This document shows, piece by piece, positions 2,087 to 44,803 of a DNA stretch of 64,000 bases. Within the stretch, counting starts at the first letter, position 1, and every line of letters starts with the position of its first letter. The position numbers were made by a program, and so were the translations under genes. The DNA comes from an uncultured Elusimicrobia bacterium (lineage in GTDB: Bacteria; Elusimicrobiota; Elusimicrobia; 2-01-FULL-59-12): positions 416,001-480,000 of the forward strand of contig OY969767.1 in NCBI GenBank assembly GCA_963702895.1, read 5' to 3'. Below the pieces are notes generated by a model that worked only from the letters and a program-made list of their open reading frames with translations, was not told where the DNA came from and ran no database searches.

Positions 2087-3277
2087 TCACCAGAGGCGGC
2101 CTTCGAACTGGACATTGCCGCCATCAAAGCTGCGGGTTGTGCCGAGCTCGTCTAAGTCCCAGGTGGCGCTTAAGACCAGCCGGATGTTCGGCGTGAAATC
2201 AAACCGCAGCGGCGTCCTCAGCTCGCCCTGGGCGGTGCAGTGCCCTCCCGGGTCCCAGGCCACCGCACTGTAGACGCCCAGCGGAATCGACAGGCGCTCT
2301 GTCATCACCCAATCGAATTCAACAAACGAAGGAAGTTGCCAACGATTTTTGCTGTCATGGGGTAGGACGGTGGACGTAAAGGTCGATCGCCGGCGCTCGA
2401 GTCCCAAGCTGGGGCGCAGGCGGTGCCGCTGGAGTGCGATCTCGCGTTCGGCGCGAACGCCGCCCGCCTCCTTCGAGAAATCCTGCCGCCTGATCCCCGT
2501 GCTCAGCTCATCGTCCGAGCGCCGGTGGTTTTCCCAAAAGCCGCGCGCGCTCCACGGGCCGCGCCGGAGGGCGGCCGTGGCGGTCCAGGCGCGGTGGTTG
2601 AATATCTGCCCGTCATCCGGTAATTCCCGCTCGACCGGCGTGTCGAGGTCCCACGCGGCTTCGACAGCCGTCTCGCCGAAGATCCAACCACCCTCCGCGC
2701 GGATTGAATAGAGATCCTGCCGGTCGTAGTCGTTGGCTTTGTTTTTCTCGTTAAAATTGAAATCAACAAACCGCACGGCCAAGAGACCCCGTGCCTTGTC
2801 CGATTCCCAATCCGCGCCGAAACCGATGTCCGCATCCTGTTTATCAGCCGTCGGCTGTCCGAAGAACCGGAAACCCGCTCCCCGGCCCCGCCCCACGCGC
2901 ATGGAAAAGATCTGATCAAAGGAAGACTGTTCCACATCTTCCCACTGAGCAAGACGGTAGCCCCACCACATGCCGGAGGAGACATGGAGGCGGAACTCCG
3001 CCTCGCGGCGGACGAAGAGGTCCTTCGTGTTCAAGCTGCCTTCGGTGGTGCGGATGGCCGCTTGGGGGACGGGCGACATCGGTTCAGGCTCCCAGAAAGG
3101 GCGGAAAGCGAGCAGGTGCAGACCATAGTCCAAGTCGACGCGCGACTCGCTGTTCAAGTCCGCGCGGTCATACTGGTCACTTCCTGTAAAGAGCGCATGC
3201 GCCGGTGCCGCGCTCAGGCTGACGACGACGACGAGTGCGCCTAGGAAGGGATCAAAGGAGCGCCGGATCATGTCCAA
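2087..3277 (-). CDS. Secreted hypothetical protein, probable outer-membrane beta-barrel
   Basis: Signal peptide ending AHA, amphipathic strand-like segments, C-terminal Trp. Confidence 0.65.
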   Translation of the reverse strand: MDMIRRSFDPFLGALVVVVSLSAAPAHALFTGSDQYDRADLNSESRVDLDYGLHLLAFRPFWEPEPMSPVPQAAIRTTEGSLNTKDLFVRREAEFRLHVSSGMWWGYRLAQWEDVEQSSFDQIFSMRVGRGRGAGFRFFGQPTADKQDADIGFGADWESDKARGLLAVRFVDFNFNEKNKANDYDRQDLYSIRAEGGWIFGETAVEAAWDLDTPVERELPDDGQIFNHRAWTATAALRRGPWSARGFWENHRRSDDELSTGIRRQDFSKEAGGVRAEREIALQRHRLRPSLGLERRRSTFTSTVLPHDSKNRWQLPSFVEFDWVMTERLSIPLGVYSAVAWDPGGHCTAQGELRTPLRFDFTPNIRLVLSATWDLDELGTTRSFDGGNVQFEGRLW

Positions 3278-3314
3278 GGTAATAATAGTACTTACGGTGA
3301 GACCTTCAGAAGCA

Positions 3315-3484
3315 CAAGCCGAGAATCTTCTGTTGGGCCGGAGCTATCGCCTAAGGTCAATGGACTGATTTGTGCCGTCATCCCCCCCGGCCGTAAGGGG
3401 GGGATCCATCATTCCGTTTACGACGGTGATGGACCCCGGCTGACGACCGCCGGGGTGACGACCTAACTGAACTTTTCCGGTTAG
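3315..3484. repeat. Palindromic repeat copy 2
   Basis: Ends CAAGCCGAGAATCTTC and TTTTCCGGTTAG; internal GTCATCCCC...GGGGTGAC. Confidence 0.8.
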
Positions 3485-3560
3485 TTGGGCGGGCGGCACA
3501 TTTTGCACAGGTTCTTGTCACTCTCTCCGGTCGAATCACTCAAATGCGATAATCCCGGCG

Positions 3561-29381: not shown

Positions 29382-30407
29382 TCAAGCATTTTTTAGGATC
29401 CGAGGATTGACTGACCTATAGTCAGCAAGATACGGTGACTTTGTGCGCAGTACGGCACAGATAATGCGCAAGAGTTTGTTGGCAATGTTGTTGAGCGCCA
29501 AGCGTTTGGCTTTTCCGGCTTGTACTTTTCTTTCAAAGTAGTGCCTGAACTGCTGATGATGTGTGCGAAGGGATCGGGCTGCCAGGTGCAATAGCTTGCG
29601 GATGATGTCCGGACCGATCCCGCGAGAGCTTGCATTCTTGCGCACGGAAGTTCCGCTGGAGTGTTCGAGTGGGCACATGCCCAAATACGAGGCGATGCGG
29701 CGGGGTTCCAGGGATCGCGTAAAGCCTTGGCTGATGACCATCAAATGGGCCGTCAAGAGTCGGCCCACCCCAGGGATGGTGAGCAGCAAGCTCACCATGG
29801 GGCCAATGGTGGGGTGGTTTGAGATCAGTTGATCCAAGGCCTGATCGATTTTTTTGATCTGTTCTTTGAGATGGCGGATGGTGTCCAGGAAGCTTTGTTC
29901 GGCGAGGATCGTGCGAACGACTTTCCGGCTGATGGCCGACAAGGCATTTTGATTGGCGGTCATCTGGCCGGTCAGCTGCTCGCGCGTCGTCAGAAGAACA
30001 CGGACTTGTTCGATCAAGGCTTCCGAGGGTTTCCAGAACGCGAGTTGATCGAAAAAGCGCCAGGCATATTCGGCGAGCTGGCGGCTATCGATGGGGTCGC
30101 TTTTGGCTCCCAGGGGGTGAAAGGCGCGTTTGGTTTTATGCGGCGCCTCCACCGACACCGGATAGCCTTTGGCACAGAGCCAGTAGCAGAGCTGCTCCGC
30201 ATAAACACCGGTGGCTTCCATGCAGACCACGGTATTGGTGGAATCGACTCCGCGTTTCTTAAACCAGGCTTCGAATTCCTCAAAGCCGGCGGGTGTATTG
30301 GCGAGCGTCTGATGTTTGGAATACTTTTGTTCGGCTGAGCTGTAATGTGTTGCGCTGAAGGTTTGATCGGCGATATCAACGCCTATGTAATGGAGAGGTG
30401 GGTTCAT
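29382..30407 (-). CDS. IS110-family transposase (bridge recombinase)
   Basis: IGVDIA, CMEATG, KSDPIDS, TIPGVG, YLGMCP..HSSGTS; AAGGAG RBS. Confidence 0.95.
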   Translation of the reverse strand: MNPPLHYIGVDIADQTFSATHYSSAEQKYSKHQTLANTPAGFEEFEAWFKKRGVDSTNTVVCMEATGVYAEQLCYWLCAKGYPVSVEAPHKTKRAFHPLGAKSDPIDSRQLAEYAWRFFDQLAFWKPSEALIEQVRVLLTTREQLTGQMTANQNALSAISRKVVRTILAEQSFLDTIRHLKEQIKKIDQALDQLISNHPTIGPMVSLLLTIPGVGRLLTAHLMVISQGFTRSLEPRRIASYLGMCPLEHSSGTSVRKNASSRGIGPDIIRKLLHLAARSLRTHHQQFRHYFERKVQAGKAKRLALNNIANKLLRIICAVLRTKSPYLADYRSVNPRILKNA

Positions 30408-30429
30408 AAGGCTCCTTTTTGTAAGTGCC

Positions 30430-30600
30430 GACATTCGTGATGCGAGCTTTGCCTATTAAGGGTTTTTATGACATCACTTCTATCTAGCTTTGGATCACGA
30501 AAGAATGGGGTCTTTACCGGGGTATGGTTTTCACCTTGGCGAAAGTTAGACTTATTCCATTCTTGTCGGTGTCTTCTTCTAGAGTCTACAAAGACTCGAG
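30430..30600 (-). ncRNA. Bridge RNA with target- and donor-binding loops
   Basis: Guides CUUUCGCC (30538-30545) and ACCCCGG (30517-30523) match the insertion site; UAAUAGG (30452-30458) matches the element end; enclosing stems visible. Confidence 0.85.
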
Positions 30601-30766: not shown

Positions 30767-31489
30767 TCAGTCCAGGCGATAGCCGAAGCCGATGACGGTT
30801 TTGATTCGGCTGGAAAAGGATTCTCCCAGTTTCTTTTTTAGGCGGGAGACGTGGACTTCCACCGTGTGGGGATCGTTGTAGGTCTCTGGCTCATAACCCC
30901 AAACGCTTTTCAGAAGCGTGAGGGGGGAAAGGATGTTCTTGGGTTTCCGGAGGAGCTCCATCAGAAGGTCAAATTCCTTGCGGGTCAAGGCGACATCCTT
31001 GCCTTCGACCTGCACGCGGCGCTCCGTGACGTTCAAAGTGAGGTTGTAATAGCGGAGCGTTTGCTCCAGCTCCTCCGGCGCTTTGACCCGCCGGAGCACC
31101 GCCTGAATCTTGGCCAGAAGCAGGTCCGGGTTCAGAGGCTTGAGGAGATAGTCGTCCGCCCCGCCTTGCAGGCCGTCGACCACGTCTTCCTGCTCCATCC
31201 GTTCGCCCGAGATCAGGATCACGGGAATCTTTTCGGCCGCCGGATTTTTCTTCAGGGCGGCGCAGATCTCCACCCCGTTTTCCTTTTCCAGCAGCACGTC
31301 CATGAGCACCAGATCAGGACGCTCCTTCAGCACAAGGGGCAGCACTTCGGAGCCACGGCGGCAAACCGTGACGAGGCAGCCGGCCTTGGTCAGCCAGGTT
31401 TTGGCCATGTCCCGAAGCACGGCATCATCATCGGCGATCAGAATACGAGTGGGCGATGTCACAAGATTGATTTTATCAAAGACGATCAT
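30767..31489 (-). CDS. OmpR/PhoB-family response regulator
   Basis: ILIADDD REC domain; LTRKEFDLL, TVEVHVSRLKKKL, GFGYRL. Confidence 0.93.
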   Translation of the reverse strand: MIVFDKINLVTSPTRILIADDDAVLRDMAKTWLTKAGCLVTVCRRGSEVLPLVLKERPDLVLMDVLLEKENGVEICAALKKNPAAEKIPVILISGERMEQEDVVDGLQGGADDYLLKPLNPDLLLAKIQAVLRRVKAPEELEQTLRYYNLTLNVTERRVQVEGKDVALTRKEFDLLMELLRKPKNILSPLTLLKSVWGYEPETYNDPHTVEVHVSRLKKKLGESFSSRIKTVIGFGYRLD

Positions 31490-31571
31490 ACGACATGACA
31501 CAACATTGCACGAAATCAGGACCCCAAGGTCCCTCACCGGCCGCGCATTATGAAGGCAGGGACGACCAGAA

Positions 31572-31886
31572 GCAGGAAATCTTTAGAGGTAGGTTGCCTC
31601 CTCTTTCCCTGGAGCAGACGCCTGCTCGCTCCAGCGAAATTTCCCCCTCCATGGCCCTAGCCCTGCAGGGCCACGGAGGGTCAGCGTTTTGGCTTCGGGC
31701 AGCCTGCGGAACTCGGACCCTTTCCCAAAAGCATAGTGGTAGGTCCTCGCACAGTCCTCCGCCACTGGGTCTCTGGCGGACGCCAACGTCGTAGTGGCGT
31801 CGGCTTGGCACACCCTCGCCAAAACGCTTGAAATTTCGAGTCGCTCGCCAGGCTCCCGCTCCTGGGAAAGAGGTGCAACTCCATCT
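31572..31886 (-). ncRNA. Unassigned structured RNA-like element A
   Basis: Long nested stems; shares motifs with element B, with compensatory changes; strand inferred. Confidence 0.55.
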
Positions 31887-31892
31887 TGATAA

Positions 31893-32112
31893 CAGGAACA
31901 TCTTTTGTCGTGGGGGAGAGAGGCAGCGAACGACTCGCGGACGGCGGCCGGGTGGTGAGCGCGTCTAGCCGAGGATGGTTGAGCCTCGACCTTTGATGTA
32001 CAGGCAGGAGGCGAGTTCCGCAGGCTGCGCGAACCACCCAGCCGGGGTGTCCGGGAGCGCCGGAGTGAGTCGCCTCCCTCCCCCACGGCAAGAACCCCCG
32101 AAGATTTCCTGC
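31893..32112 (+). ncRNA. Unassigned structured RNA-like element B (paralogue of A)
   Basis: Closing stems CAGGAACATCTT/AAGATTTCCTG and TTGTCGTGGGGGAG/CTCCCCCACGGCAA; shared core CGAGTTCCGCAGGCTGC. Confidence 0.55.
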
Positions 32113-32261
32113 ATCGGAAACGGCCAAGGGACTGGAGATGACAGGCCTAATATTATTAGGATGATCCCCAATGTGGTCCGCATCGCATTGGAAAGAGCGC
32201 TTCTGGTTGATACTGGCGGCTTCGAAGTCTTAATTCCACCTCTACAGAAAAGGAAACTGTC

Positions 32262-34508
32262 ATGCATAAAATGATGCAAGCTACGCCGTTTGAAGTGATG
32301 TCCATCTGGATTGTTCTTGGAATTGCCATGCTGGGGCTGGCCTACGCGATGCTCTTGCGCAGCCAAATCCTCAGAATGGATACGGGTACCCCCAAGATGC
32401 TGGAAGTTTGGAACGCGATCCGCCTTGGCGCCGATGCCTACCTCGGCCGCCAGCTCAAAATCATTACCCCTTTGATTCTGGTGCTTGCGGTGGTCCTCTT
32501 CTACTCGGTTTACATCGTTCCCCCGACCGCGGAGGCGCTCGAGCGCTTTGAAGGGTACACCCCGGAGAAAGTCCGCTTTCTGATCGGCATGGGCCGCGCG
32601 ATCGCCTTTATCATGGGCGCCGGCTTCTCACTGATCGTCGGCCAGTTCGGCATGCGCATGGCGGTCCAAGGGAACGTCCGCGTCGCGGCGGCCTCGCGGC
32701 GCAGTTTCTCGGAAGCGCTTAAAGTGGCCTACCGCTCCGGAACCATCACCGGCATGCTCACGGACGGCCTGGGACTTTTCGGCGGCACCGTCATTTTCAT
32801 GTACTTCGGGGTGGCCGCGCCGGACGCGCTCCTGGGCTTTGGCTTCGGCGGGACGCTCTTGGCGCTCTTCATGCGCGTGGGCGGCGGTATTTACACCAAG
32901 GCCGCGGACGTGGGAGCCGACCTCGTCGGCAAGGTGGAAGCGGGCATCCCGGAGGATGACCCCCGCAACGCCGCCGTGATCGCGGACCTCGTGGGCGACA
33001 ATGTCGGCGACTGCGCCGGTATGGCCGCGGACATCTTTGAATCCTATGAAGTCACGATCGTCTCGGGGCTGATCCTGGGTCTCGCCCTCGTATCCATCAC
33101 CCACGAGCTCAAGTGGATCATTTTCCCGCTTCTCGTGCGCGGCATCGGGGTGCTCTCGTCCATCATCGGGACCTACGTCGTCCGGGGCTCTCCGGGTGAG
33201 GAGCGCGGCAACGCCCTTTCGTCCATCAACAAGGGGTTCTACACGTCGGCGCTCATTTCAGTCGTCGCCTTCTTCTTCCTCGCGCACTACTACATGCACG
33301 AGTGGCGGGCGTTCCTTTCGGTCTTCGCCGGCATTGTGCTTGCCATCGTGCTCGACGAGGTGACGAAGTACTTCACCGACACGCACTACCGCCCGGTCAA
33401 AAGCATCGCGGGCGCATCCAAGACCGGATCGGCGACGCTCATCCTGCGCGGCCTGGGCGTCGGGTTTGAGTCGGCCGTCTGGCAGACCCTCGTCATCGCC
33501 GGCGCGATCTTCGCGGCCGTCCTCATCTACCGCGGCCAGCCGGTGATCTTCGTGCTCTACGGCGTCGCCATGACCGGCATCGGCATGCTCACCCTCACCG
33601 GGAACAATGTGGCCATGGACTCGTTCGGCCCCATCGCCGACAACGCCAACGGCATCGGCGAAATGGCGGGTTTGGAACCCAAGGCCCGCAAGATCATGGC
33701 GGACTTAGACGCCGTCGGAAACACCACCAAGGCCATCACCAAGGGTGTGGCGATCGGTTCCGCCGTCATCGCCGCGGTCTCCCTGTTCGGTTCCTATCTC
33801 ACCGACGTGACCAACGTGCAGGCGCAGATGGGACTGGGCGAGCCGCTCCGGCTCCTGAACACCGGCATCCGCATTTCCCAGCCGGTCGTCTTCATTGGGT
33901 TCCTCATCGGCGGCGCGGTGCCCTGGCTCTTTTCCGGGCTCTGCATCAACGCCGTCACCCGCGCCGCCTCCCTGATCGTGGAGGAAGTGCGCCGTCAGTT
34001 CCGCATTCCGGGGTTGATGGAAGGGACCGTCGCGCCGGATTACAAGCAGGCGGTGGGGATTTGCACGCAAGCGGCACAGAAGGAGCTCGTGAGCCTGGCG
34101 CTCATCGCGATTTTGACCCCGCTCCTCGTGGGGATGCTCCTGCGCGTGGAGGCCCTGGGCGGGTTTTTGGGCGGTGTGATCCTTTCCGGACAGCTGCTCG
34201 CGGTCTTTATGGCGACGGCGGGCGGCGCCTGGGACAATGCCAAAAAGCTGATCGAAGACGGCATCTATGGCGGCAAAGGCTCGGAATGCCATAAAGCGGC
34301 CGTGGTCGGCGACACCGTGGGGGATCCCCTCAAAGACACTTCGGGGCCCGCGCTCAATCCCATGATCAAGGTGATGAACCTTGTGTCGCTTCTGGCGGCG
34401 CCGATCCTCGTGCAATACGACTTGTCGCACTGGGGCATGTGGGTGGCGATCTTTATCTGTTCGGCCGTGGTCCTGGCCTCCATCGGCTACTCCAAGCGGG
34501 AAAGCTAG
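32262..34508 (+). CDS. hppA: Membrane-bound ion-pumping pyrophosphatase, K+-independent type
   Basis: GGIYTKAADVGADLVGKVE, DNVGD, GDTVGDPLKD; GNTTKA (Lys). Confidence 0.96.
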   Translation: MHKMMQATPFEVMSIWIVLGIAMLGLAYAMLLRSQILRMDTGTPKMLEVWNAIRLGADAYLGRQLKIITPLILVLAVVLFYSVYIVPPTAEALERFEGYTPEKVRFLIGMGRAIAFIMGAGFSLIVGQFGMRMAVQGNVRVAAASRRSFSEALKVAYRSGTITGMLTDGLGLFGGTVIFMYFGVAAPDALLGFGFGGTLLALFMRVGGGIYTKAADVGADLVGKVEAGIPEDDPRNAAVIADLVGDNVGDCAGMAADIFESYEVTIVSGLILGLALVSITHELKWIIFPLLVRGIGVLSSIIGTYVVRGSPGEERGNALSSINKGFYTSALISVVAFFFLAHYYMHEWRAFLSVFAGIVLAIVLDEVTKYFTDTHYRPVKSIAGASKTGSATLILRGLGVGFESAVWQTLVIAGAIFAAVLIYRGQPVIFVLYGVAMTGIGMLTLTGNNVAMDSFGPIADNANGIGEMAGLEPKARKIMADLDAVGNTTKAITKGVAIGSAVIAAVSLFGSYLTDVTNVQAQMGLGEPLRLLNTGIRISQPVVFIGFLIGGAVPWLFSGLCINAVTRAASLIVEEVRRQFRIPGLMEGTVAPDYKQAVGICTQAAQKELVSLALIAILTPLLVGMLLRVEALGGFLGGVILSGQLLAVFMATAGGAWDNAKKLIEDGIYGGKGSECHKAAVVGDTVGDPLKDTSGPALNPMIKVMNLVSLLAAPILVQYDLSHWGMWVAIFICSAVVLASIGYSKRES

Positions 34509-34828: not shown

Positions 34829-37800
34829 TCAGGCGCTGCGGAAAACAGAACGCATCGAAGGTAGATATTTCTTCCCGTGTCGGTGGTCCGCCCCGAAGAA
34901 GATGGTCATTCCCTGAATTAGATTGACTGCACCAAATGCCGTGAGGAGGGCGCTCTGAGAAGCGCCCAGAGGTGCGAGATTTAGCAGAATCGCACCGGTC
35001 AGGAATTGAATAGCCCCTGGCAAGAAATAGAACAGGGCCAGCCTGACATCTGATCCTATCTCTGGAGGGTTCTCGCGATATCCTTGGGTTAACCAAAGGT
35101 GCGCCTTTTCGTAGAAGTTCTTCCCGGCGAGCAAACGCAGGCCTCCGCCGAGAGCCAGATGCAGGCCCACATGTGCCAGATAAAAGATCCCTGTTGCAGC
35201 TATTACAACGAGCATTTGGCGGAGCCCAAAATGATGAGCGTCCACCAGTGGAAGGAATCCGACGATGGCGCTAAGAATCGTAAACATCCCCTCTTGCGAT
35301 GCTGTTTCTGAATTTTTTCTCGCGGGTCTTCCAATCCTTGGTTCACTTGTTGGTGAAAATTCCCTGATCATGCGTTCGCGGCGTTGTGCTTGTATCGCAG
35401 GGTCTGGCGTGTAAACAAAATATTTATCAAGGACGACCTTGACTGGAAATGTGGGGTTTCCGGGAGTGAGCTCGGAGTGGAAGATACCGCCGTCTTCCGT
35501 ATTTGGAATGACAAGGCTCAGCGGGCTTTCGAGCGGTGTCTTCACCAACTGATATCCCGCTCCAAGGACTTTATCGGCATCTTTATCAAACAACGTAGCC
35601 GGGAAAATGATAGGTCGCCCGGACACGTCGGCCCATACTTTCATGTACATTAGGAAAGCGGGCAGAAAATCCAATTCAGACCGAACAGAGTACACATTGC
35701 TAGTCGCTAGAAGAGGTCCTTCTTGGGATCGAGCGATGGAAAATCTAGCCAAACGGTCCCTCCCGCGATTCTCTTCCGTTTTAAGGAATGCATAGACAGC
35801 GTGAATCCAAGGATTTTCCCAGTACGCCCGGATGTTGTGGAGTATGTGCTGTCTGTAGCGGTATGTGAAATCCAAAGAGCCGTGTGTTCCTGGGAATCCT
35901 ACGAATAGGCTTTCGAAGGGTTTATAAGCGGCGTCCAAAATAACCAGTTCCGATTTCAGAGATTGTCTTTGAATCTCTCTGGTCAAGTTTTGAAGGGTCA
36001 GGAGGTTGTCCGTCAGTCTTTCGATCTCGTCTCGCAGTCCCGTCAACATCTGCGCCTGCTGGTGGGTATGTTTCTTTCGAGCTTCCAAGTGGAGTCGTTG
36101 AATTGCTTCAACGATGGAGAGCAGGACACTGCGGAGGGAAGTGGCGATGATTTCACTTTCCTTTGATAATTGTTCATCCGATCGGAGCCTGATGGTTCCC
36201 TCCATCTCTAGTAATTTCAGGAACTGTGGATCAATCTTTTCATGGGAGCGCAGGGCCACAAGGTTCGGATCTATAAGCAAGGATGCTAAACCGGCACGCA
36301 CCTCTTTCCAGCATCTCATTCTGCTTTCCATGGCGTTGGAGTACTGACGCAGGTGGATGGGGATCTCGATGGCTCCCGGGCCCTCCAACCAATCAGATAT
36401 CTGGATGGGGTCAGCTTCGCGGCGTTGTTTGAGAGACCCCCTATAGTATCTTGATGATTCCTGCAGAGCAGCGCTGGCGTCACCTGGATACCTTTGCAAC
36501 ATCTGCGTATAGCGGATGAGACATTGCTTAAAGATCTCTGCTCCAGGTATTACGTGCTCTTTTATATGCTCATAGTAATGCAAGGCGATCTCCAGATCTG
36601 GATGAACACTGATGCGACGCAGGGGGTCGAACGTAACCCCCAATATCATGGAAAGAGGGATGGTCTCACGCAGTCCAGCGATTTCTCTTATTGCCTTTTC
36701 CAGCGCTGTATAGACGGATTTACTTTTAATCGTTCTCCGCGGTGTCGATTCATCCGGCTTCCATTCCCTGATCAGGTTCGAGAGCACGTTGCTGACGGTG
36801 GGGATGGCGCCCCGGGTTCCGGTCATGGATTCAGAGAATTCCGTCAGCGAGCGGAGAAGTGTGCCGAGTCCTCCCAACAATCCGCCATACTCCTTTTTCG
36901 ATAGAAGTGGCCAAATATCGCTCAACGCATTTAGGAGATCATGAATCTTCGGTCCAAAAGGGGTCGAAAGGGCTTGCGCTGCATATTGAAGATTGCTCCG
37001 ATTCTCAATCTTTTCGCCACTGATCCAAAACTGGTTCAACAGCAAAGGTAGATCTCTGCGCCTAAACATGAATAAGACAATCAAATGGGCGAGAAGGTCT
37101 TTGGGATTTAATGTTTCCAATCGGCGGACACGTTCAAGCGATTCGCTTGAACCACGGAGTCGATTCCAAGTCACGATGAACCTGCCGCGTATGTTCTGAT
37201 CATCGATGTTAGGTGCCCCAAATTCCAGCTCAGTTAATAAGGTGCGTTCAAAGGCAATAAATTCCGACTCCGGGTCCGAAATCCCTGATCCAGGAAGACC
37301 GTCATAAACCGAAAGGGGGTGCCCAAGCCATATCAATGCCTCGAGGGTTTGTTCCCAGGCTGTCGTCCGGTCAATGGCGATGAGGCTGGGGGAGCCCCGG
37401 GACGAGGCCAGGATCTTCATTACCCATTGCATCACGTGCTGGGCATTCTGCCATGTGTGCGTGATGGGCGCAGAAGTGCGCAAAGGGTTTGATTCGTATT
37501 GAATATAACGAATGACATCATCTATGGAGCTGGTTCCCCGGAGCTGGCCGGGGCCAGCAATACGGATTTCTTCAGCCTTGGCGATCCTCTCGATGCGTTC
37601 CACGAGCGAAGACCAGCGGAGATTGTTGTCCCGCACGATGTGCTTCGCTTGAATTTCAATCATCTTTCGAGCAAGCAGGCCCGCCAGCTGATCTGGTGTC
37701 AATCGTTCAGCGAGCTTCCGGCCAATAAAAATCTTGTTATCCATCGAAGAAGCTATGCTCGTTTGATGGCCCGGCGCCTCTTCCTCAAACACAACGACGG

Positions 37801-40800
37801 AGATTTTATTGAGCCAACGGTTGTAATCAATGTTTCCGAAGGGTATCAGAAAGTGCGTGTAGGACACGAGCCCAGGGGGTGTTAACATCAGAAATAAGGT
37901 GCGCGTAAATATTGCAAACCGATCCATAAGTTGTACTGCATTGCGGATCCACCTTGCCTTTGGGCGGGAGGGACTCTCCACGGCGAGCCCTCGCAACTGA
38001 TCAAATGCCGCGCGGCACTTGTTGATCAGCTCCCTGTTGTCCGAAAGGATCTCATCCATTCTGGGTGGAGTGATCGAACGCAAATCACCGGCGCTCGCGA
38101 TGGTTCTCGGGAGTCCTCCGCGTGCTTCATCGTGCGTATAGAGTCTTCGCGTCCCTCCCAAGGGTTCGCGGCGCTCCAGCGGGCCGGGTCCCAGACTTGC
38201 TTCTGCGTCAGCAGGAACTTTCCTTTCCAAAAGCCTAAAGGCGAAATTAAGAAGCAATATGGTCAAGTATCCAAAAACAACAAGGCCGACTATCTGCATC
38301 GCGAAAAATGAGACGTCTCCGGGGAAAGAAGGTCCCAGCGGCCAGGAGGAAGAGAGCGGCGTCAAAAGCCCCGCGAAAAATGAGACGTCTCCGGGGAAAG
38401 AAGGTCCCAGCGGCCAGGAGGAAGAGAGCGGCATCAAAAGCCCCGCGAGGGCGCTCCCGATCACGAAGGAACCTTCCATGGAGGCCCCGCCGTGGGGTGA
38501 GTCTTCTGCTGAGTCCGGATGAAGTCCTGATGCGGACTCCAAAGAATGACTCTTAGAAAAAGCGTCACGAATATTCTTCACGCGATCCCGGAGTGGCACG
38601 GGGATATCGTTAAGGCTCCGGCGTAGAGACGGCCGCGCTGTGGCATCTGAATAGCGATAGGGAGTGGCATGTTCTCCTTTCTTTTCTTGAATCAAAATCT
38701 TAAACCGCCCAGTATCAGTGCTCTCATCGAGAAAATCTCGCAGCGCTGCAGGTGACTGCCGTTCCGAGTTTGGCCCAAACCGTCCTTTTAAGGCCTGTTC
38801 TCGCACAGAGGTTCCGCTCATCAAATCACGCACCAACCCAAACCACGTCGTGTGGAGCGCTGTGTCTTCCCCGCGATTTGCCAAGGCTGTGAAGTTCAAA
38901 TCCGCCGTAATTTGTTGCTGCAAAATACGTGGGTGATAGGGAGGGGTGAGTTGTTCCTCCAATGGCACCTCTCCTCCATAGATATGGTGTTGAGGTGCTC
39001 CGGTGTGAAGATGTCTGAAAAGATCAGGAGCGCTGTGTCCATAATCCAACGTGAAAATGAACCCGGCTTCAAGGGCGCGACCGACATTTTCGACAAAAGA
39101 ATCCGCTTCGGTGTTGGCGAAGATCGTCCATCTCTGTTGTTCATGGCTTGCCAGGGCTGTGGCATAATCCTCGGCGTTTCGCTGGAGATGCTCGGCGACT
39201 TCAGGAATCTGTTGGGAAGGCACGTAGGTCTCTGTGTAGGTAATGCTGGCAAGCCGGGATTGAATGTCGCCCGGCGGCAGGCCCCCAACCGCCGATAGAT
39301 ATTTTTCAAAGCTTGATCGCGTTAGATACATGACGTTAACGCCGTTCAGCGCTGTCCGATCCCGGACCTCCGCGTCTTGTTGCCGGATGAGATCGTTCAA
39401 TTCCTGTCCGGAACCGATCTCGTCCAAGAGAGCAAGATGTTCAATCGGGATTTGCGGTATAACGAAAGCCACTTCCGCTTCACCTTGTGTTGTCAGAACG
39501 ACTTTGTGGGAGCCTAAATCATCCAGAAGCTCGTTTGTGAAGATCACCCCCTTGATCCTTCCCCCCATTAATGTGGCGAGTTTCGCTTGAGCTTCCCCCA
39601 ATACCGCATCCATTTTCCCTTTGTCAATATAATCACGGCCTTCCGCCGCCTGGCGATCATGTAGGCGAGCAGACTGCTCTATAATCGTGTAATGCAATTG
39701 GTTCCAGAAATCTCGCCATTCTGAGCTGGAACCATGTGAGGCACGGGACTCGACATAGCGCATGACGTCTCGAGAGAGAATGCCCGTTCCACCACCAAAT
39801 TCGACGAAATGAAACACATCCTGGGGCGAGAGGGATTCGTTATGACGCATATGTTGCCACATGCTAAAGAGGTGTTCCGCAATCATTCTCCCGAACAAAG
39901 GAGACAGCTCGACAGGCAGGGTCGAAAAATCTTCGTGGGGACCAATTCCCGCTCGATAACGATAATACAGCTGGTTGACAAGCGACATGAAGTCCTTAAA
40001 AGAGACGAAGAGTTCTGGCGCGACATTCTGCAGACGCTCAGGGAGGGAAATCGGTTCTGAGGGCTCGGCCGCGGCCTCGGTGGCAGGGATATTGCGCTCT
40101 CGGCGGGTGGGTCCGGAAGGATGAGCAGATAAAGGATTTGCAGGACGTGATCCGTCGCCCATTCGAGGCGCCAGGCCAGCGCTATCGGAGGGGCTTTCCG
40201 CCGAGGGTCCGATTCGTCCAGGTTCGGAAGTGACAGAAGCTCCCCCAGTCGGCGACCCCGGGCGGTTCGGAACTGAGCTTGAGTCAGGCGGGGACTGCAA
40301 GCGCTCCTTCATGGTTTTCAAACGTGCCACAAACCGTTCGAAATTTTTTCCCTTCATTCTTGCAGGCAGCCAATCCTGATTACTTTCCAGCCATTCCAAA
40401 AAGGCTTGAATACCGCTGACGAGTTCCTGTCTTACTGCGTCGGCATCTTCGCCTTCTTCAACATAAGGCTCCATAAATGCTTCGTCCGATATTCTGTTGC
40501 TCTGTCGAATCAAGATCTTGAGAAAATCAATCCGGCTGTTCTTATAGAGCTTGTTTTTAAACGGCGGTTCCGTGGCCACGACCGGGAGTAGGAATCGAAT
40601 CCGTTTGGCGATCTGTTTCTGGGGGAAATTTGGCTTTTCGGGAGTTTGAACTTCGAAGATAATCCTCAAGTTGTCCGTGCCGTCAGCCGATTTCGCGGCC
40701 TGAATATGAATGCTGGCCTCGTCGCGAAACCGGCTCCCGTACAGCGCATATCCCGCCTTCTTATAGTTTGTCATCAGGGTAATGATATTGATCAGGCGAT

Positions 40801-43800
40801 GCTCGATCATCCGGAAGGTGTCTCTGATTTCTTGCGCGATTCGATCCCGGTAGGCGACCATGATAGGGTGATCCGCAGGGGGGACCTTTTCCCCGGGATG
40901 GTCGCGCAAAAACATATTGCGGGGTCCATTTTCCAGGACGTCATGAAGCAATCCGCCTCCGATGAGGATGACCGGGTCTCTTTCTCCTTGTCGCAACAGG
41001 AGGGCCATGACGCTGGCAGGATGAACGGCGTAGTCGCGCCCATCCAGCCGTCTTTCGGGATCCCGTCGTTCTCCGTCCTTCGATACGGAGTGAAATTTCT
41101 CCATCAGCCGGATGGCGTCTTGAACCATAATGAGGGACTCTTCATCCTCTTGGCCGGGAGTTCCTTCTGCAAGATCGGAAGGCATGGGTTCATCGATATC
41201 GCCCTCCATCTCCTCGTCGCCCGCAAATGGACTGACCAACTTCTCCATGACCCCATCCAGGAAACGTCTGATTCTCCCTCTCCCAAATTTCTCCTGCAGC
41301 TTTTCGAGGGTCTTGACGGCCGTCGCATCGAAAATATCACCGGGCCCCACTTCGAAATGTTGGATCGACAGGTCGTGCGCTCGCTGCATTTGACCAAGGA
41401 CGCCCTGCAGGATAGTGATCGCGGATATTTCCGGAGCATCTAGCGAGGAAGGGATGGAAAGCGCGAAATTCAGCCAGAGAGTGCCGCTTTCCGTTTCTTC
41501 GTCGATGGTCAACCGCGCAATGTTCGCTAATGGCAATAGTGTGTTCAGGGTCGCAAAGAAATTCTTCATGAGGAGGGGATTGTCGGGAATCTGCACACTG
41601 GCCGTGACCCGTTTGATCGGCCGTGGCCCGGTGTTTGTGGGTGATAGGCGCAAGGCATTCATCTTTTCCACCAGAGACGTCATATCGACGTGGCGGTCTC
41701 TTTGCAGGACGAGACGCAATAGCCCAGTTCCTTCTTCGGCCGGGAGCGTACGCGAGCCTGCCAAGAGACGCGCTCCATGGTCGACGATCAAACCCATCAC
41801 GTGGGCAAAGATGGCTGGCTGATCTTTGGGGACCCGGATCAGGACGACCACCGTGTCCGATGTTTCCGCCGAGAGGTCCAGAGTGGCATTGATTTCGACA
41901 AAATCGGGAGTTGGCGTGTTGGCCTCCGGGGGTGGAAGATCGACGCCCGGCACCGTGGGCGCGATGGGGACGGTCGGAATAGGTGTTGGCAGGGCCTCGG
42001 AGGTCTGTATTGGGGCTGGGCTGGGCTGGACGGCCTCCACTGGCGCGGGCGATGCTGGTCTTTCCAGACGGGTCGCTTTCAAACGGCCTACGACATCGTC
42101 AAACGAGAGGACCCCGCAGGCGATGGCCAGCAGCGCGTATTCCGCATTGGGGACGGGCATTCCCTTCTCTCCAGCTAAGTCAGCAAGGCTGCGGCTGTAT
42201 CGTGCTAATCTGGGAGGAGTCCCGGCATTTTCCAGATCCTGGGTCGCCAGGGCAATCATTTCACCACGAATTTCTTGCCAGAGTGCCTCCTGGCGTTCAG
42301 CCACATAGGTATCGCGATGGGTAAGGCCCATGGCGGCCAGTAGGTGGTCGGCGTCGGGGAAGGAATGCTTCGAGGCCAGCGGCCCGAGGACTTGCCGTAA
42401 GGGCTGAAGCCAATTGGGTGACGGTCCACGGGGACGTGGACCCGTCTCCCTTTGCAGTCGTTCATGCAATTTCTCCGTGCCCTCCGCAGCTAATTCTGCT
42501 AACTGGGAGGCCCGGTCATCACTCTGGCGCAATTCGAATTCGACGAGAGCAGGCAAGGTGGAGGCGGATCTCATCATGGTCCGCAAGGACGCTGGGTTAT
42601 GTCTGATTGAAGCACCCTCCCTATCGGGCACATTGTCTGGCTTCACCTCATCTCCGTCTTCCAGTCGATATCCGAGGTCGACCCAGAATCCTCGATGCCT
42701 TCCCCGCGAAATATTGGCTCCACGGGTCCGGGGCCCCAAGGCGTTCATTTGCGCCAGGGCATCCGCCACGTTGCCTCTTCTTGACCCTCCTTTGGGGACG
42801 CACGCCGGAATCAAGTTTTCAGTATGTTCGTCGAACGGAGCGTGGAAGAAAAAAATGAAGGGATTAACGAGCTTTTCTCCAAATTTATTGAAAGTTCCTC
42901 GAGGGTCACGCTCATCCGGTTCAAAAGGATCATAGGCAGGGAGGACAAGAGTCAGCTGCTGTACCAGATAAGCCCAGCGGGCTTTTGTTGGACCGTAGCG
43001 GTATCGCCAATAAGCGTCCTGGTCATCGAAAATCTGGAATTCGTGCGGCCGGCGCTCGCCTGTTAACACGCGTTCGAACGAGGTGTGAAACGCCCAGTCC
43101 ATGCGTGAGGGGTCCGTCTGGTATTCGAAATGCTTCGCGATCCTGGCAGTCACATCGTTCTGTTGATCTGCATTGGTGAGAATAACGCTAAACCGCAGGA
43201 TGTCCCTTATCTCGCCGACGTGGCCATACCCCCTCTTGTCCGATCTCAGTTTGCGCATGACGGCGCCAACAGTTTTCAAGTTCCACGAAATTACCACTCC
43301 CTCGGGCAAGTCCTTTTGAATATCTCGTGCAGTCTTGTCCAGATAATCTCTCATCTCCGGCCAGGACATTTTGTATTCGGCTTGGATATCAGCATTCATC
43401 TTGGCATAGGCAGTAGGATCCGCCAATTGCTCGGCTTCATCCAGCAGTGAAGTGCTCAAGCCGGGCATGCCGAGGCGCTCGAGCAGGGGGACGTACACTT
43501 CGCTGATTTCGCGGTAGGTCTCATGCAGGACGTCGGAAGACACATTCGCTCCTTTCATCGTGGCCAATTTGGTTGCCATGGTCAGCAAAAGCACATCCAG
43601 AGAGCCCGCCTTTTTCGCATAGTGACCCATCAGATCCGGAATGGCCCAGCGGTGCTTGTCCAGCTGCTCTTTTGTCAGTCCGTAGCTCGTCGGGAACGTC
43701 TTGTTTACTTTTTCAGTCACTGCGAGCAGCCTGTCTTTTTCAGCTTTTTGGAGTCCCATTCGGCGTCGTTCCGATTCAGTGGTGCGGAGGAGGAACGCCG

Positions 43801-44803
43801 CGGCTAAGACATCAGGATCCACTTCGAGATTCAAGGCGCGAATCATCAAACGGTATTTCGCTGCGACATCGCTGCAGAACGTAGAATCCTCACTCCCTTG
43901 GCCCATATCGCGCTGGCTATAGATCTGGGCGGCTGCGGCGCGAGCTTTCTCCACGATCAGAGGATCTCTCGGGGGCGTTTGTTCGTCGGGGGCTGGTTGG
44001 CCGGCCGGATCCGGCGCTGACCCGGAGGGGGATGCGTCCATGATGGCAGGTACTCGAGTCCAGTCGCGGTTATTCATTTCATGGTAATAGGTGCTGAGCC
44101 AGAGGCCCGGAAGCGTGAGCAGAGGTGTGGCCAGCGCCGCAAGAAGCGCCGCTGTGGCCGGATCGGCGTGCGGGGCAAAAACGCGCGCAAACACCAGAGC
44201 GGCTCCCAGCGTGGTCGCTAGGAATACCCCGGTCAGGCTTCTGGCTGTCTGCCGCACTTCGTCACGCTGAGCATCCGTGAGGTTCCAGCCTGTCCGGTGG
44301 TCGATTCTGTGCCGGGAAACGAAATAAGGGATGCTGGTACGGTAAGCCAGGTAACCCAATCCGCCGGCAACGGCCATGCCGATCCCAACCAGGGGCGCGC
44401 CGGTCACGCCCAGTTTGATCAGGGAGGCGATGGCTGCAAGGGAACCGGCGGCGGCCCCGGTCCAGGGCAAGTAACGGACAAGGAATTCCTGCTCGCCAGG
44501 CTCGGAAATTTCGCGGTTGATACGCGCCGTGAAATCTCTGTACATTCCGGCAAAGGACTGGAAAGGCTGAAGTTTAATGAGCCGCGCGGCAAGCGCGGCG
44601 GGGGCCAGAGCGTCTTCCTGGAAGCGCGCGTTCTGAAATGAGGTGGATGCGGAGGTCGTCGGTGAAAGGCTTTGACCCGCCGCAAACGATAAAGCGTGCG
44701 GGTCTGCGGCAAGCGCGAAGACGAGAATCAGCGATGTCAGCCGGTAAAAGGTTCGATTCATAAGAATCCCAAACACGCCTGCGCGCGCGTTCGATAGGTT
44801 CAT
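34829..44803 (-). CDS. Giant 3324-aa multidomain membrane protein (RelA/SpoT-like, TGS, ACT, HD hydrolase, MidA/NDUFAF7 methyltransferase); start may be ATG 44761
   Basis: 10 kb uninterrupted ORF; KTVGAVMRK/IRDIL/HEFQI; YAVHP..LLHDVLEN..KSADGTDN; VEFGGGTG..TNELLD..TLDYGH..ITADLNF. Confidence 0.85.
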   Translation of the reverse strand: MNLSNARAGVFGILMNRTFYRLTSLILVFALAADPHALSFAAGQSLSPTTSASTSFQNARFQEDALAPAALAARLIKLQPFQSFAGMYRDFTARINREISEPGEQEFLVRYLPWTGAAAGSLAAIASLIKLGVTGAPLVGIGMAVAGGLGYLAYRTSIPYFVSRHRIDHRTGWNLTDAQRDEVRQTARSLTGVFLATTLGAALVFARVFAPHADPATAALLAALATPLLTLPGLWLSTYYHEMNNRDWTRVPAIMDASPSGSAPDPAGQPAPDEQTPPRDPLIVEKARAAAAQIYSQRDMGQGSEDSTFCSDVAAKYRLMIRALNLEVDPDVLAAAFLLRTTESERRRMGLQKAEKDRLLAVTEKVNKTFPTSYGLTKEQLDKHRWAIPDLMGHYAKKAGSLDVLLLTMATKLATMKGANVSSDVLHETYREISEVYVPLLERLGMPGLSTSLLDEAEQLADPTAYAKMNADIQAEYKMSWPEMRDYLDKTARDIQKDLPEGVVISWNLKTVGAVMRKLRSDKRGYGHVGEIRDILRFSVILTNADQQNDVTARIAKHFEYQTDPSRMDWAFHTSFERVLTGERRPHEFQIFDDQDAYWRYRYGPTKARWAYLVQQLTLVLPAYDPFEPDERDPRGTFNKFGEKLVNPFIFFFHAPFDEHTENLIPACVPKGGSRRGNVADALAQMNALGPRTRGANISRGRHRGFWVDLGYRLEDGDEVKPDNVPDREGASIRHNPASLRTMMRSASTLPALVEFELRQSDDRASQLAELAAEGTEKLHERLQRETGPRPRGPSPNWLQPLRQVLGPLASKHSFPDADHLLAAMGLTHRDTYVAERQEALWQEIRGEMIALATQDLENAGTPPRLARYSRSLADLAGEKGMPVPNAEYALLAIACGVLSFDDVVGRLKATRLERPASPAPVEAVQPSPAPIQTSEALPTPIPTVPIAPTVPGVDLPPPEANTPTPDFVEINATLDLSAETSDTVVVLIRVPKDQPAIFAHVMGLIVDHGARLLAGSRTLPAEEGTGLLRLVLQRDRHVDMTSLVEKMNALRLSPTNTGPRPIKRVTASVQIPDNPLLMKNFFATLNTLLPLANIARLTIDEETESGTLWLNFALSIPSSLDAPEISAITILQGVLGQMQRAHDLSIQHFEVGPGDIFDATAVKTLEKLQEKFGRGRIRRFLDGVMEKLVSPFAGDEEMEGDIDEPMPSDLAEGTPGQEDEESLIMVQDAIRLMEKFHSVSKDGERRDPERRLDGRDYAVHPASVMALLLRQGERDPVILIGGGLLHDVLENGPRNMFLRDHPGEKVPPADHPIMVAYRDRIAQEIRDTFRMIEHRLINIITLMTNYKKAGYALYGSRFRDEASIHIQAAKSADGTDNLRIIFEVQTPEKPNFPQKQIAKRIRFLLPVVATEPPFKNKLYKNSRIDFLKILIRQSNRISDEAFMEPYVEEGEDADAVRQELVSGIQAFLEWLESNQDWLPARMKGKNFERFVARLKTMKERLQSPPDSSSVPNRPGSPTGGASVTSEPGRIGPSAESPSDSAGLAPRMGDGSRPANPLSAHPSGPTRRERNIPATEAAAEPSEPISLPERLQNVAPELFVSFKDFMSLVNQLYYRYRAGIGPHEDFSTLPVELSPLFGRMIAEHLFSMWQHMRHNESLSPQDVFHFVEFGGGTGILSRDVMRYVESRASHGSSSEWRDFWNQLHYTIIEQSARLHDRQAAEGRDYIDKGKMDAVLGEAQAKLATLMGGRIKGVIFTNELLDDLGSHKVVLTTQGEAEVAFVIPQIPIEHLALLDEIGSGQELNDLIRQQDAEVRDRTALNGVNVMYLTRSSFEKYLSAVGGLPPGDIQSRLASITYTETYVPSQQIPEVAEHLQRNAEDYATALASHEQQRWTIFANTEADSFVENVGRALEAGFIFTLDYGHSAPDLFRHLHTGAPQHHIYGGEVPLEEQLTPPYHPRILQQQITADLNFTALANRGEDTALHTTWFGLVRDLMSGTSVREQALKGRFGPNSERQSPAALRDFLDESTDTGRFKILIQEKKGEHATPYRYSDATARPSLRRSLNDIPVPLRDRVKNIRDAFSKSHSLESASGLHPDSAEDSPHGGASMEGSFVIGSALAGLLMPLSSSWPLGPSFPGDVSFFAGLLTPLSSSWPLGPSFPGDVSFFAMQIVGLVVFGYLTILLLNFAFRLLERKVPADAEASLGPGPLERREPLGGTRRLYTHDEARGGLPRTIASAGDLRSITPPRMDEILSDNRELINKCRAAFDQLRGLAVESPSRPKARWIRNAVQLMDRFAIFTRTLFLMLTPPGLVSYTHFLIPFGNIDYNRWLNKISVVVFEEEAPGHQTSIASSMDNKIFIGRKLAERLTPDQLAGLLARKMIEIQAKHIVRDNNLRWSSLVERIERIAKAEEIRIAGPGQLRGTSSIDDVIRYIQYESNPLRTSAPITHTWQNAQHVMQWVMKILASSRGSPSLIAIDRTTAWEQTLEALIWLGHPLSVYDGLPGSGISDPESEFIAFERTLLTELEFGAPNIDDQNIRGRFIVTWNRLRGSSESLERVRRLETLNPKDLLAHLIVLFMFRRRDLPLLLNQFWISGEKIENRSNLQYAAQALSTPFGPKIHDLLNALSDIWPLLSKKEYGGLLGGLGTLLRSLTEFSESMTGTRGAIPTVSNVLSNLIREWKPDESTPRRTIKSKSVYTALEKAIREIAGLRETIPLSMILGVTFDPLRRISVHPDLEIALHYYEHIKEHVIPGAEIFKQCLIRYTQMLQRYPGDASAALQESSRYYRGSLKQRREADPIQISDWLEGPGAIEIPIHLRQYSNAMESRMRCWKEVRAGLASLLIDPNLVALRSHEKIDPQFLKLLEMEGTIRLRSDEQLSKESEIIATSLRSVLLSIVEAIQRLHLEARKKHTHQQAQMLTGLRDEIERLTDNLLTLQNLTREIQRQSLKSELVILDAAYKPFESLFVGFPGTHGSLDFTYRYRQHILHNIRAYWENPWIHAVYAFLKTEENRGRDRLARFSIARSQEGPLLATSNVYSVRSELDFLPAFLMYMKVWADVSGRPIIFPATLFDKDADKVLGAGYQLVKTPLESPLSLVIPNTEDGGIFHSELTPGNPTFPVKVVLDKYFVYTPDPAIQAQRRERMIREFSPTSEPRIGRPARKNSETASQEGMFTILSAIVGFLPLVDAHHFGLRQMLVVIAATGIFYLAHVGLHLALGGGLRLLAGKNFYEKAHLWLTQGYRENPPEIGSDVRLALFYFLPGAIQFLTGAILLNLAPLGASQSALLTAFGAVNLIQGMTIFFGADHRHGKKYLPSMRSVFRSA
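38300..38448. repeat. In-frame 72-bp tandem duplication within the giant gene
   Basis: AGLL(M/T)PLSSSWPLGPSFPGDVSFF twice. Confidence 0.92.

Follow-up and report, generated by a model that had tools for sequence, protein, structure and literature searches.

The region described here lies in a window of 64,000 nucleotides (the whole stretch analyzed, positions 416,001 to 480,000 of contig OY969767.1 from an uncultured Elusimicrobia bacterium), between the gene of an OmpR-type response regulator (30767..31459, minus strand) and hppA, encoding an H+-pyrophosphatase (32262..34508, plus strand). Two rod-shaped structured units stand back to back in this gap: unit A on the minus strand (31600..31873, closing stem 31849-31873/31600-31624) and unit B on the plus strand (31905..32091, closing stem 31905-31924/32072-32091). 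Their 5' ends are separated by a short variable spacer to which no strand is assigned (31874..31904); an ORF, a consensus promoter and a terminator were looked for in it and none was found. The 3' tails of the units are at the same time 22-bp terminal inverted repeats, the left one at 31568..31589 (plus) and the right one at 32095..32116 (minus), and outside them lie 9-bp target-site duplications (31559..31567 and 32117..32125, both plus; 6 of 9 bases identical). A sigma-70-type hppA promoter, the presumed target of insertion, is predicted by consensus score at 32133..32162 (plus), with the −35 box (32133-32138) starting at the 17th base past the element end and the −10 box at 32157-32162.

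An initial annotation had reported a pair of structured elements between an OmpR-type regulator gene and an H+-pyrophosphatase gene, and both the pair and its setting are real; its ends, however, lie four bases further out on each side, at 31568-32116, in the frame of the 9-bp duplications. The motifs that it described as common to the two units are placed as claimed: a 12-base motif at 31837-31848 (minus) and from 31926 (plus), AGCCGA at 31800-31805 (minus) and from 31967 (plus), an identical 17-mer at 31699-31715 (minus) and from 32012 (plus), and a 3' 12-mer at 31572-31583 (minus) and from 32101 (plus). The proposed self-folding was borne out for unit A (z = −8.3, 0/100 dinucleotide shuffles) and unit B (z = −3.6, 0/200). 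Unit A includes a side hairpin (31645-31680) and a conserved core (31694..31805, minus; AGCCGA...GGA, an apical hairpin and the 17-mer), while the core of unit B lies at 31967-32028. Unit A is indeed one structured unit, yet 42 of its bases (31760..31801, no strand) form a double-hairpin insert that splits the core and is identical in three of the eight full copies found in the genome. Parts of this insert match a separate short repeat family present in the same genome and in the genomes G001 and G002. The insert is common to the copies at 447k, 1133k and 1939k, though the last represents another subgroup, and this distribution suggests recombination or conversion between copies. The window also holds an IS110-family transposase gene (29382-30434, minus), one of several copies in the genome and unlinked to the element, and an ORF of 3324 aa (34829-44803, plus) with stretches that look by eye RelA/SpoT-like and methyltransferase-like.

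Twenty-one aligned long-form units fit a nested rod that is 82.5% paired; both partners vary in 32 of its 47 pairs. Its covariation was 0.401, compared to 0.140 after shuffling (0/500) and at most 0.157 when the rod was slid, values obtained on related sequences with a structure drawn from those same sequences and not equal to an R-scape test. Inner helices (4 and 7) covary too, and the outer stems pair almost perfectly, yet are unrelated from one locus to the next. The invariant core consists of GCC GA GGA ... GA, an apical hairpin and GAGUUCC G(C/G)A GGC; it is invariant by construction among the pattern hits, and the model also recovers it in other genomes. The internal loops of the core are asymmetric and non-palindromic and are kept across phyla. 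According to this analysis, the two units of the window, with their shared motifs and the same core, are paralogous and belong to a covarying family, as had been proposed from the pair itself, and the earlier view that they are not a simple inverted duplication was right. A suggested pseudoknot between GACUCG and CGAGUU found no support: the sequence allows the pairing, but covariation as high as its own appears in 159 of 500 shuffles. Of the two strands, the written one gave the better fold in 15 of 16 cases under RNA parameters and in 16 of 16 under DNA parameters, a bias that does not discriminate between the two types of molecule.

The genome (2.72 Mb, one contig, 98% complete) contains eleven copies with common ends. 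Eight of them are full copies of a non-coding element of 500–610 bp, including window positions 31568-32116 and those at ~522k, 683k, 1133k, 1249k, 1704k, 1827k and 1939k, with units A and B back to back in every case. Two end-bounded copies (106k and 1198k) hold unit B only, and at the left end of the 106k copy the sequence reads like a B 3' end on the opposite strand. The remaining copy (1959k) is rearranged; it has both ends and an exact duplication around an interior without intact cores. In the eight full copies, A-half and B-half distances correlate (Mantel r = 0.82, p = 2.5e-4), which indicates that the doublet moves as one piece. A lone diverged unit without terminal repeats was found at 2371k (L152; G000:C1 2371427-2371632, minus), with a perfect 21-bp closing stem, between methylthioadenosine phosphorylase-like and HAD hydrolase-like genes (names assigned by eye); it is possibly a source or a remnant of the family.

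The copies bear the marks of transposition. Over ten elements, the 9-bp flanks gave 59 of 90 matches against a permutation mean of 27 (0/100,000 permutations); the 683k copy was excluded because its right end is decayed. By element, 6, 7, 7, 1, 8, 0, 6, 9, 6 and 9 of nine bases matched, so that the duplication is exact in two of the ten, and two show none at the fixed register (0/9 and 1/9, the second off by one indel). A −35 start at bases 15–18 past the B end ranked first among 66 windows (0/100,000 permutations), and the same interval past the A end gave a weaker signal (p = 0.0056), both with our own rough sigma-70 consensus weights and an interval set after one copy had been seen and with TnGBS as a precedent. 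The better promoter side is B in six elements and A in four, and the score is at least 5.4 bits in nine of ten. The predicted metK promoter is kept almost letter for letter in the relative G003, which has no element upstream, and the site is also empty in the relatives G001 and G007; no element occupies the tRNA-Leu/mutY site of G003, G004 or G007. Both of the two comparable sites are therefore empty in relatives, which are too distant for base-level junctions, and the window site falls outside this comparison. The conserved metK promoter and the empty sites lend independent support to promoter-proximal insertion.

Overall, the element is a non-coding doublet with terminal repeats whose repeated insertions lie at a constant spacing in front of promoter-like sites and duplicate 9 bp. 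With its dispersed copies, common ends, duplications and empty sites it is a MITE, that is, a non-autonomous element with terminal inverted repeats (TIRs), and its outer shell alone is of an ordinary kind. A non-autonomous mobile element had been among the initial suggestions; this part stands, the pair being a MITE with multiple copies, terminal repeats, target duplications and promoter targeting.

In the parts of Guerillot et al. (2014; PMC3942029) compared here, insertions of TnGBS/ISLre2 and of the ISKra4 group are reported to lie 15–17 bp upstream of −35 boxes, with 8–9 bp repeats and terminal repeats of 18–39 bp, and to take either orientation where the two ends hardly differ. The promoter spacing and duplication of our element are like those given there for the ISKra4 family (p-MULT 4: ISKra4, ISAzba1 and ISMich2 groups) and for ISLre2/TnGBS (p-MULT 3). 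In a string search of Table S1 of that paper, the end of ISMal1 (ISAzba1 group) was closely similar to that of the element, and the layout of the element ends is in register with the ends of ISKpn19 and ISMal1. The consensus of 20 element ends matched both ISKpn19 ends at 13 of 22 positions without gaps, with the peak at zero shift; random 22-mers reach at least 13 in 0.09%, a p-value that is optimistic because ISKpn19 was picked after the likeness had been seen. Five ISKra4-group ends from the host class scored 11, 10, 10, 8 and 5 of 22.

Other features speak for caution. The element ends begin with C (12 of 20) or A (8 of 20), in contrast to the G of the p-MULT ends in the published rows compared; the closest ends belong to the ISAzba1 group, whose 23 rows examined list no direct repeat and no promoter junction; and, unlike ISKra4-family elements, ours has no transposase gene and an interior of two covarying rods. 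No transposase of the ISKra4, ISLre2 or ISAzba1 type was found in the 98% complete genome. Due to the mismatch at base 1, the ISAzba1 rows and the lack of a resident transposase, the ISKra4 assignment is likely but not demonstrated. An autonomous element with these ends was found neither in the host genome, in 250 genomes of the class or 400 of the phylum nor among 91 loci with the end motif (88 viral and 3 genomic); the exact motif is present as a single occurrence in each of three of the 400 phylum genomes and at the 88 viral loci, in no case with a partner end. Genes of the ISKra4 family were found in 26 of the 250 class genomes, and the 21 loci inspected had different ends. As movers, the resident IS256, IS4 and IS1380 and a two-copy 397-aa DDE element were rejected because their ends differ; the first three match the element consensus at 3–8 of 22 positions against a random mean of 5.5, in a scoring that left out the IS110 and group II intron copies. 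The two copies of the 397-aa DDE element (G000:C1 2241855-2243160 and 2505520-2506843) have flanking repeats of ~15 bp, and both carry an IS256 copy at the same place in the right end.

Beyond this genome, units without these ends were found in 3 of 10 genomes of the family (1, 2 and 5 copies, non-syntenic) and in 9 of 150 genomes of the phylum, mostly in a form with a shorter apex. Among 62 distinct metagenome pattern hits, 39 were units as judged by eye and the other 23 lay in coding frames. Thauera propionica has 16 matches and a further Thauera sp. 7, both genomes having been chosen because the 17-mer is present; units also occur in 3 of 39 other genomes of the order Burkholderiales and in three contigs of the viral collection. 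The exact 17-mer scan was too loose, with the full core in only one of the loci examined (L109, the G001 unit), and model R1 found no match in five genomes reached via 17-mer loci and none in three of five others. BLAST against plasmids and phages returned short chance matches only.

Divergent doublets recur in this wider set. The AT-rich metagenome loci L162, L165, L166 and L177 contain doublets of 541–566 bp with their own terminal repeats, and a 375-bp deletion form stands beside these four full loci. Together with L200, they make up a separate doublet family of an AT-rich lineage, in which the core of the partner unit is a variant one. L281 and four loci of G641 likewise hold divergent doublets whose terminal repeats are lineage-specific, and at two of the G641 loci the partner has another apex. 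No clear duplication was seen at the AT-rich, G641 and L281 doublets. In Thauera, pairs are divergent or convergent and units follow gene ends. In L167, G004 and G171, low-GC genes lie between units placed back to back; these cargo-flanking pairs showed no shared ends or duplications. In G171 (C47 269-4462; L262) the units enclose a low-GC N6/N4 methylase, a MutH-like nuclease, an unknown ORF and a DndB-like gene, a restriction-modification set that adjoins a tRNA gene. Among 41 units outside TIR-bounded doublets, none had a flanking repeat of at least 8/9 and 11 had one of 7 (null expectation 20%); their distances to promoters were scattered, with no fixed value.

According to our own count, 10 of 13 phylum units between co-directional genes lie antisense. 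Upstream of prmA in metagenome contigs, the unit has one orientation in L171 and L210 and the opposite one in L176, L191 and L224, and looks as if it were inverting between its closing stems. The antisense bias and the two orientations at this site argue against a cis-acting mRNA element.

We compared the units with known systems. When the window and 43 homologue loci were scanned with Rfam, none of its families reached the cut-off on any unit, in line with the earlier statement that the elements were of no family recognized there. The models of 6S, Flavo-1, Methylosinus-1 and TwoAYGGAY gave nothing over cut-off in the host genome. The best score on a unit was that of Methylosinus-1 (RF03108; 25.6 bits, E = 0.021). 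Identity with it was rejected, since the score is far under the 145-bit cut-off, and so was homology, since model R1 had no match to nine true members at their RNA. By eye, a CCGAGG / CCGSAGG loop-like motif is common to both, whereas the Methylosinus-1 members are multi-branched with a promoter of their own. At the Methylosinus-1 loci (L460-L468) a sigma-70 promoter is clearly recognizable upstream, and the conserved structure runs on past both ends of the Rfam model. 6S RNA (RF00013) was rejected as well, as the units lack a model match and are multi-copy and non-syntenic.

The closest parallel is the doublets of TwoAYGGAY (RF01731), of which 68.4% are divergent and whose spread is described as mobile-like with the mechanism left open, in the parts of Li et al. 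(2026; 10.64898/2026.09.22.753630) compared here. The likeness extends to multi-copy intergenic rods, long basal stems and patchy copy number. In contrast, our units have no AYGGAY loops, a single apical hairpin and another invariant core, and so fail the motif; the RF01731 model, too, had no match in the host genome, where the controls were silent as well (alignment rows for TwoAYGGAY were taken from the supplement of PMC2864571). Terminal repeats, duplications and promoter spacing are found here and are not among the features given for TwoAYGGAY in those parts of the source. The literature compared includes parts of 10.64898/2026.10.21.760802 and PMC5737381 and yielded no description of the family or of its core sequence; the supplements of the two 2026 preprints and of PMC5737381 were beyond its scope, and a prior description there is possible. 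The rod family is therefore apparently uncatalogued.

REP/REPIN, ERIC and other hairpin MITEs are, like our units, intergenic, multi-copy and able to fold back, often arranged as doublets and located after gene ends. Our units differ from all of these in being longer and rich in internal loops, with sequence-variable stems and no consistent RAYT neighbor.

Based on these results, we consider it likely that the element is a MITE of about 500–550 bp moved in trans by an ISKra4-family (Mutator-like) transposase and that its arms are members of an older, widespread rod family. A Mutator-like DDE transposase of this family, supplied in trans and now gone from the genome, would bind the 22-bp ends and place the element 14–17 bp ahead of sigma-70 −35 boxes, with a 9-bp duplication and no damage to the promoter. 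Both the enzyme family and the route of targeting, which may run via the RNA-polymerase holoenzyme as proposed for TnGBS, are inferred. Each arm would belong to the older family of 100–250 nt rods, often arranged as divergent doublets, one of which would have acquired transposon ends in this lineage; that the ISKra4-family enzyme acted in trans and that a doublet of the older family was here captured or converted is, taken together, probable. The least certain part concerns the invariant non-palindromic loops, which most probably form a site that a protein recognizes on a folded single strand, either DNA or RNA, in a REP/REPIN-like manner, and that is presumably needed for the family's own spread; a search for a partner protein of the core found none. 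By analogy with TwoAYGGAY, there is also a slim chance that the rods are single-strand modules of a cross-phylum clan of divergent doublets, whose arms would bind the Mutator-like transposase or the sigma-70 holoenzyme, would aid promoter homing and could bracket and move cargo.

The role of the rods in transposition can be read differently. They could be the working ends, each unit with its 3' tail acting as a transposon arm whose folded core is needed to mobilize the doublet. Doublets with lineage-specific terminal repeats do recur (L162, L165, L166, L177, G641 and L281), low-GC cargo is enclosed by units in back-to-back arrangement in L167, G004 and G171, and the cores are intact in all eight full copies despite divergence of the halves by up to 26%. 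Nevertheless, we regard this as unlikely: the 1959k copy has its exact duplication and both ends without intact cores (a rearrangement that may postdate insertion), and duplications were not evident at the cargo-flanking pairs, which also share no ends, or clear at the other doublets. It is also quite improbable that the same MITE was moved by another promoter-homing DDE family, such as IS5, IS4 or IS256. Duplications of 9 bp are common to several families, and the terminal base departs from the published p-MULT ends compared; however, the resident IS256, IS4 and IS1380 ends score near random, and the spacing fits the Mutator-like value given in the compared parts of PMC3942029.

The units might instead be trans-acting RNAs (ribozyme, riboswitch-like, 6S-like or a Csr/Rsm sponge), whose transcription would start in the spacer and run outward and whose copy number the MITE would have raised. 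This would agree with the better fold of the written strand under RNA parameters, with the excess of G-U (45) over A-C (23) at paired cells in these related sequences, with tandem G-A beside a 3–4 nt bulge that looks k-turn-like to us, with the lack of an Rfam 6S match in the host genome and with the one lone unit without ends. We nonetheless doubt it strongly. No 6S model comes near threshold, and neither does any for the ribozyme or the riboswitch-like RNA that the initial annotation had put forward (among the self-cleaving ribozyme and riboswitch models of Rfam 15, the best was Hairpin-meta2, at 12.3 against 210 bits, on the other strand of unit A). Moreover, the spacer has no consensus promoter, the units are non-syntenic and restricted to 3 of the 10 family genomes, they take either orientation to their neighbors and both at the prmA site, CsrA was not found in the host genome while the controls matched, and the strand bias is the same with DNA parameters. 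Most improbable of all is that the covariation is a by-product of palindrome arms re-copied from each other by template switching, without selection on structure. Such copying would suit outer stems that are near-perfect yet unrelated between loci, and the 106k copy, whose left end corresponds to a B 3' end in reverse complement; but the invariant core is asymmetric, non-palindromic and kept across phyla, and helices 4 and 7 covary too, so that template switching can account for the outer stem only.

Multi-copy structured repeats paired as divergent doublets are common in bacteria. Here, such a doublet, from a sister-like and uncatalogued family, has a legible transposition footprint of ends, 9-bp duplication, promoter spacing and empty sites, and this footprint names a candidate enzyme family. 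The element also places a stable double rod of 500 bp immediately before promoters, those of metK, hppA and a tRNA gene among them, and at this position it could block read-through or regulation from further upstream. The rod family deserves a covariance model of its own.

At one further locus (L264), a RAYT-like ORF recognized by eye and without a Pfam hit (3062-3529, plus) lies directly upstream of a unit; this is a single case.
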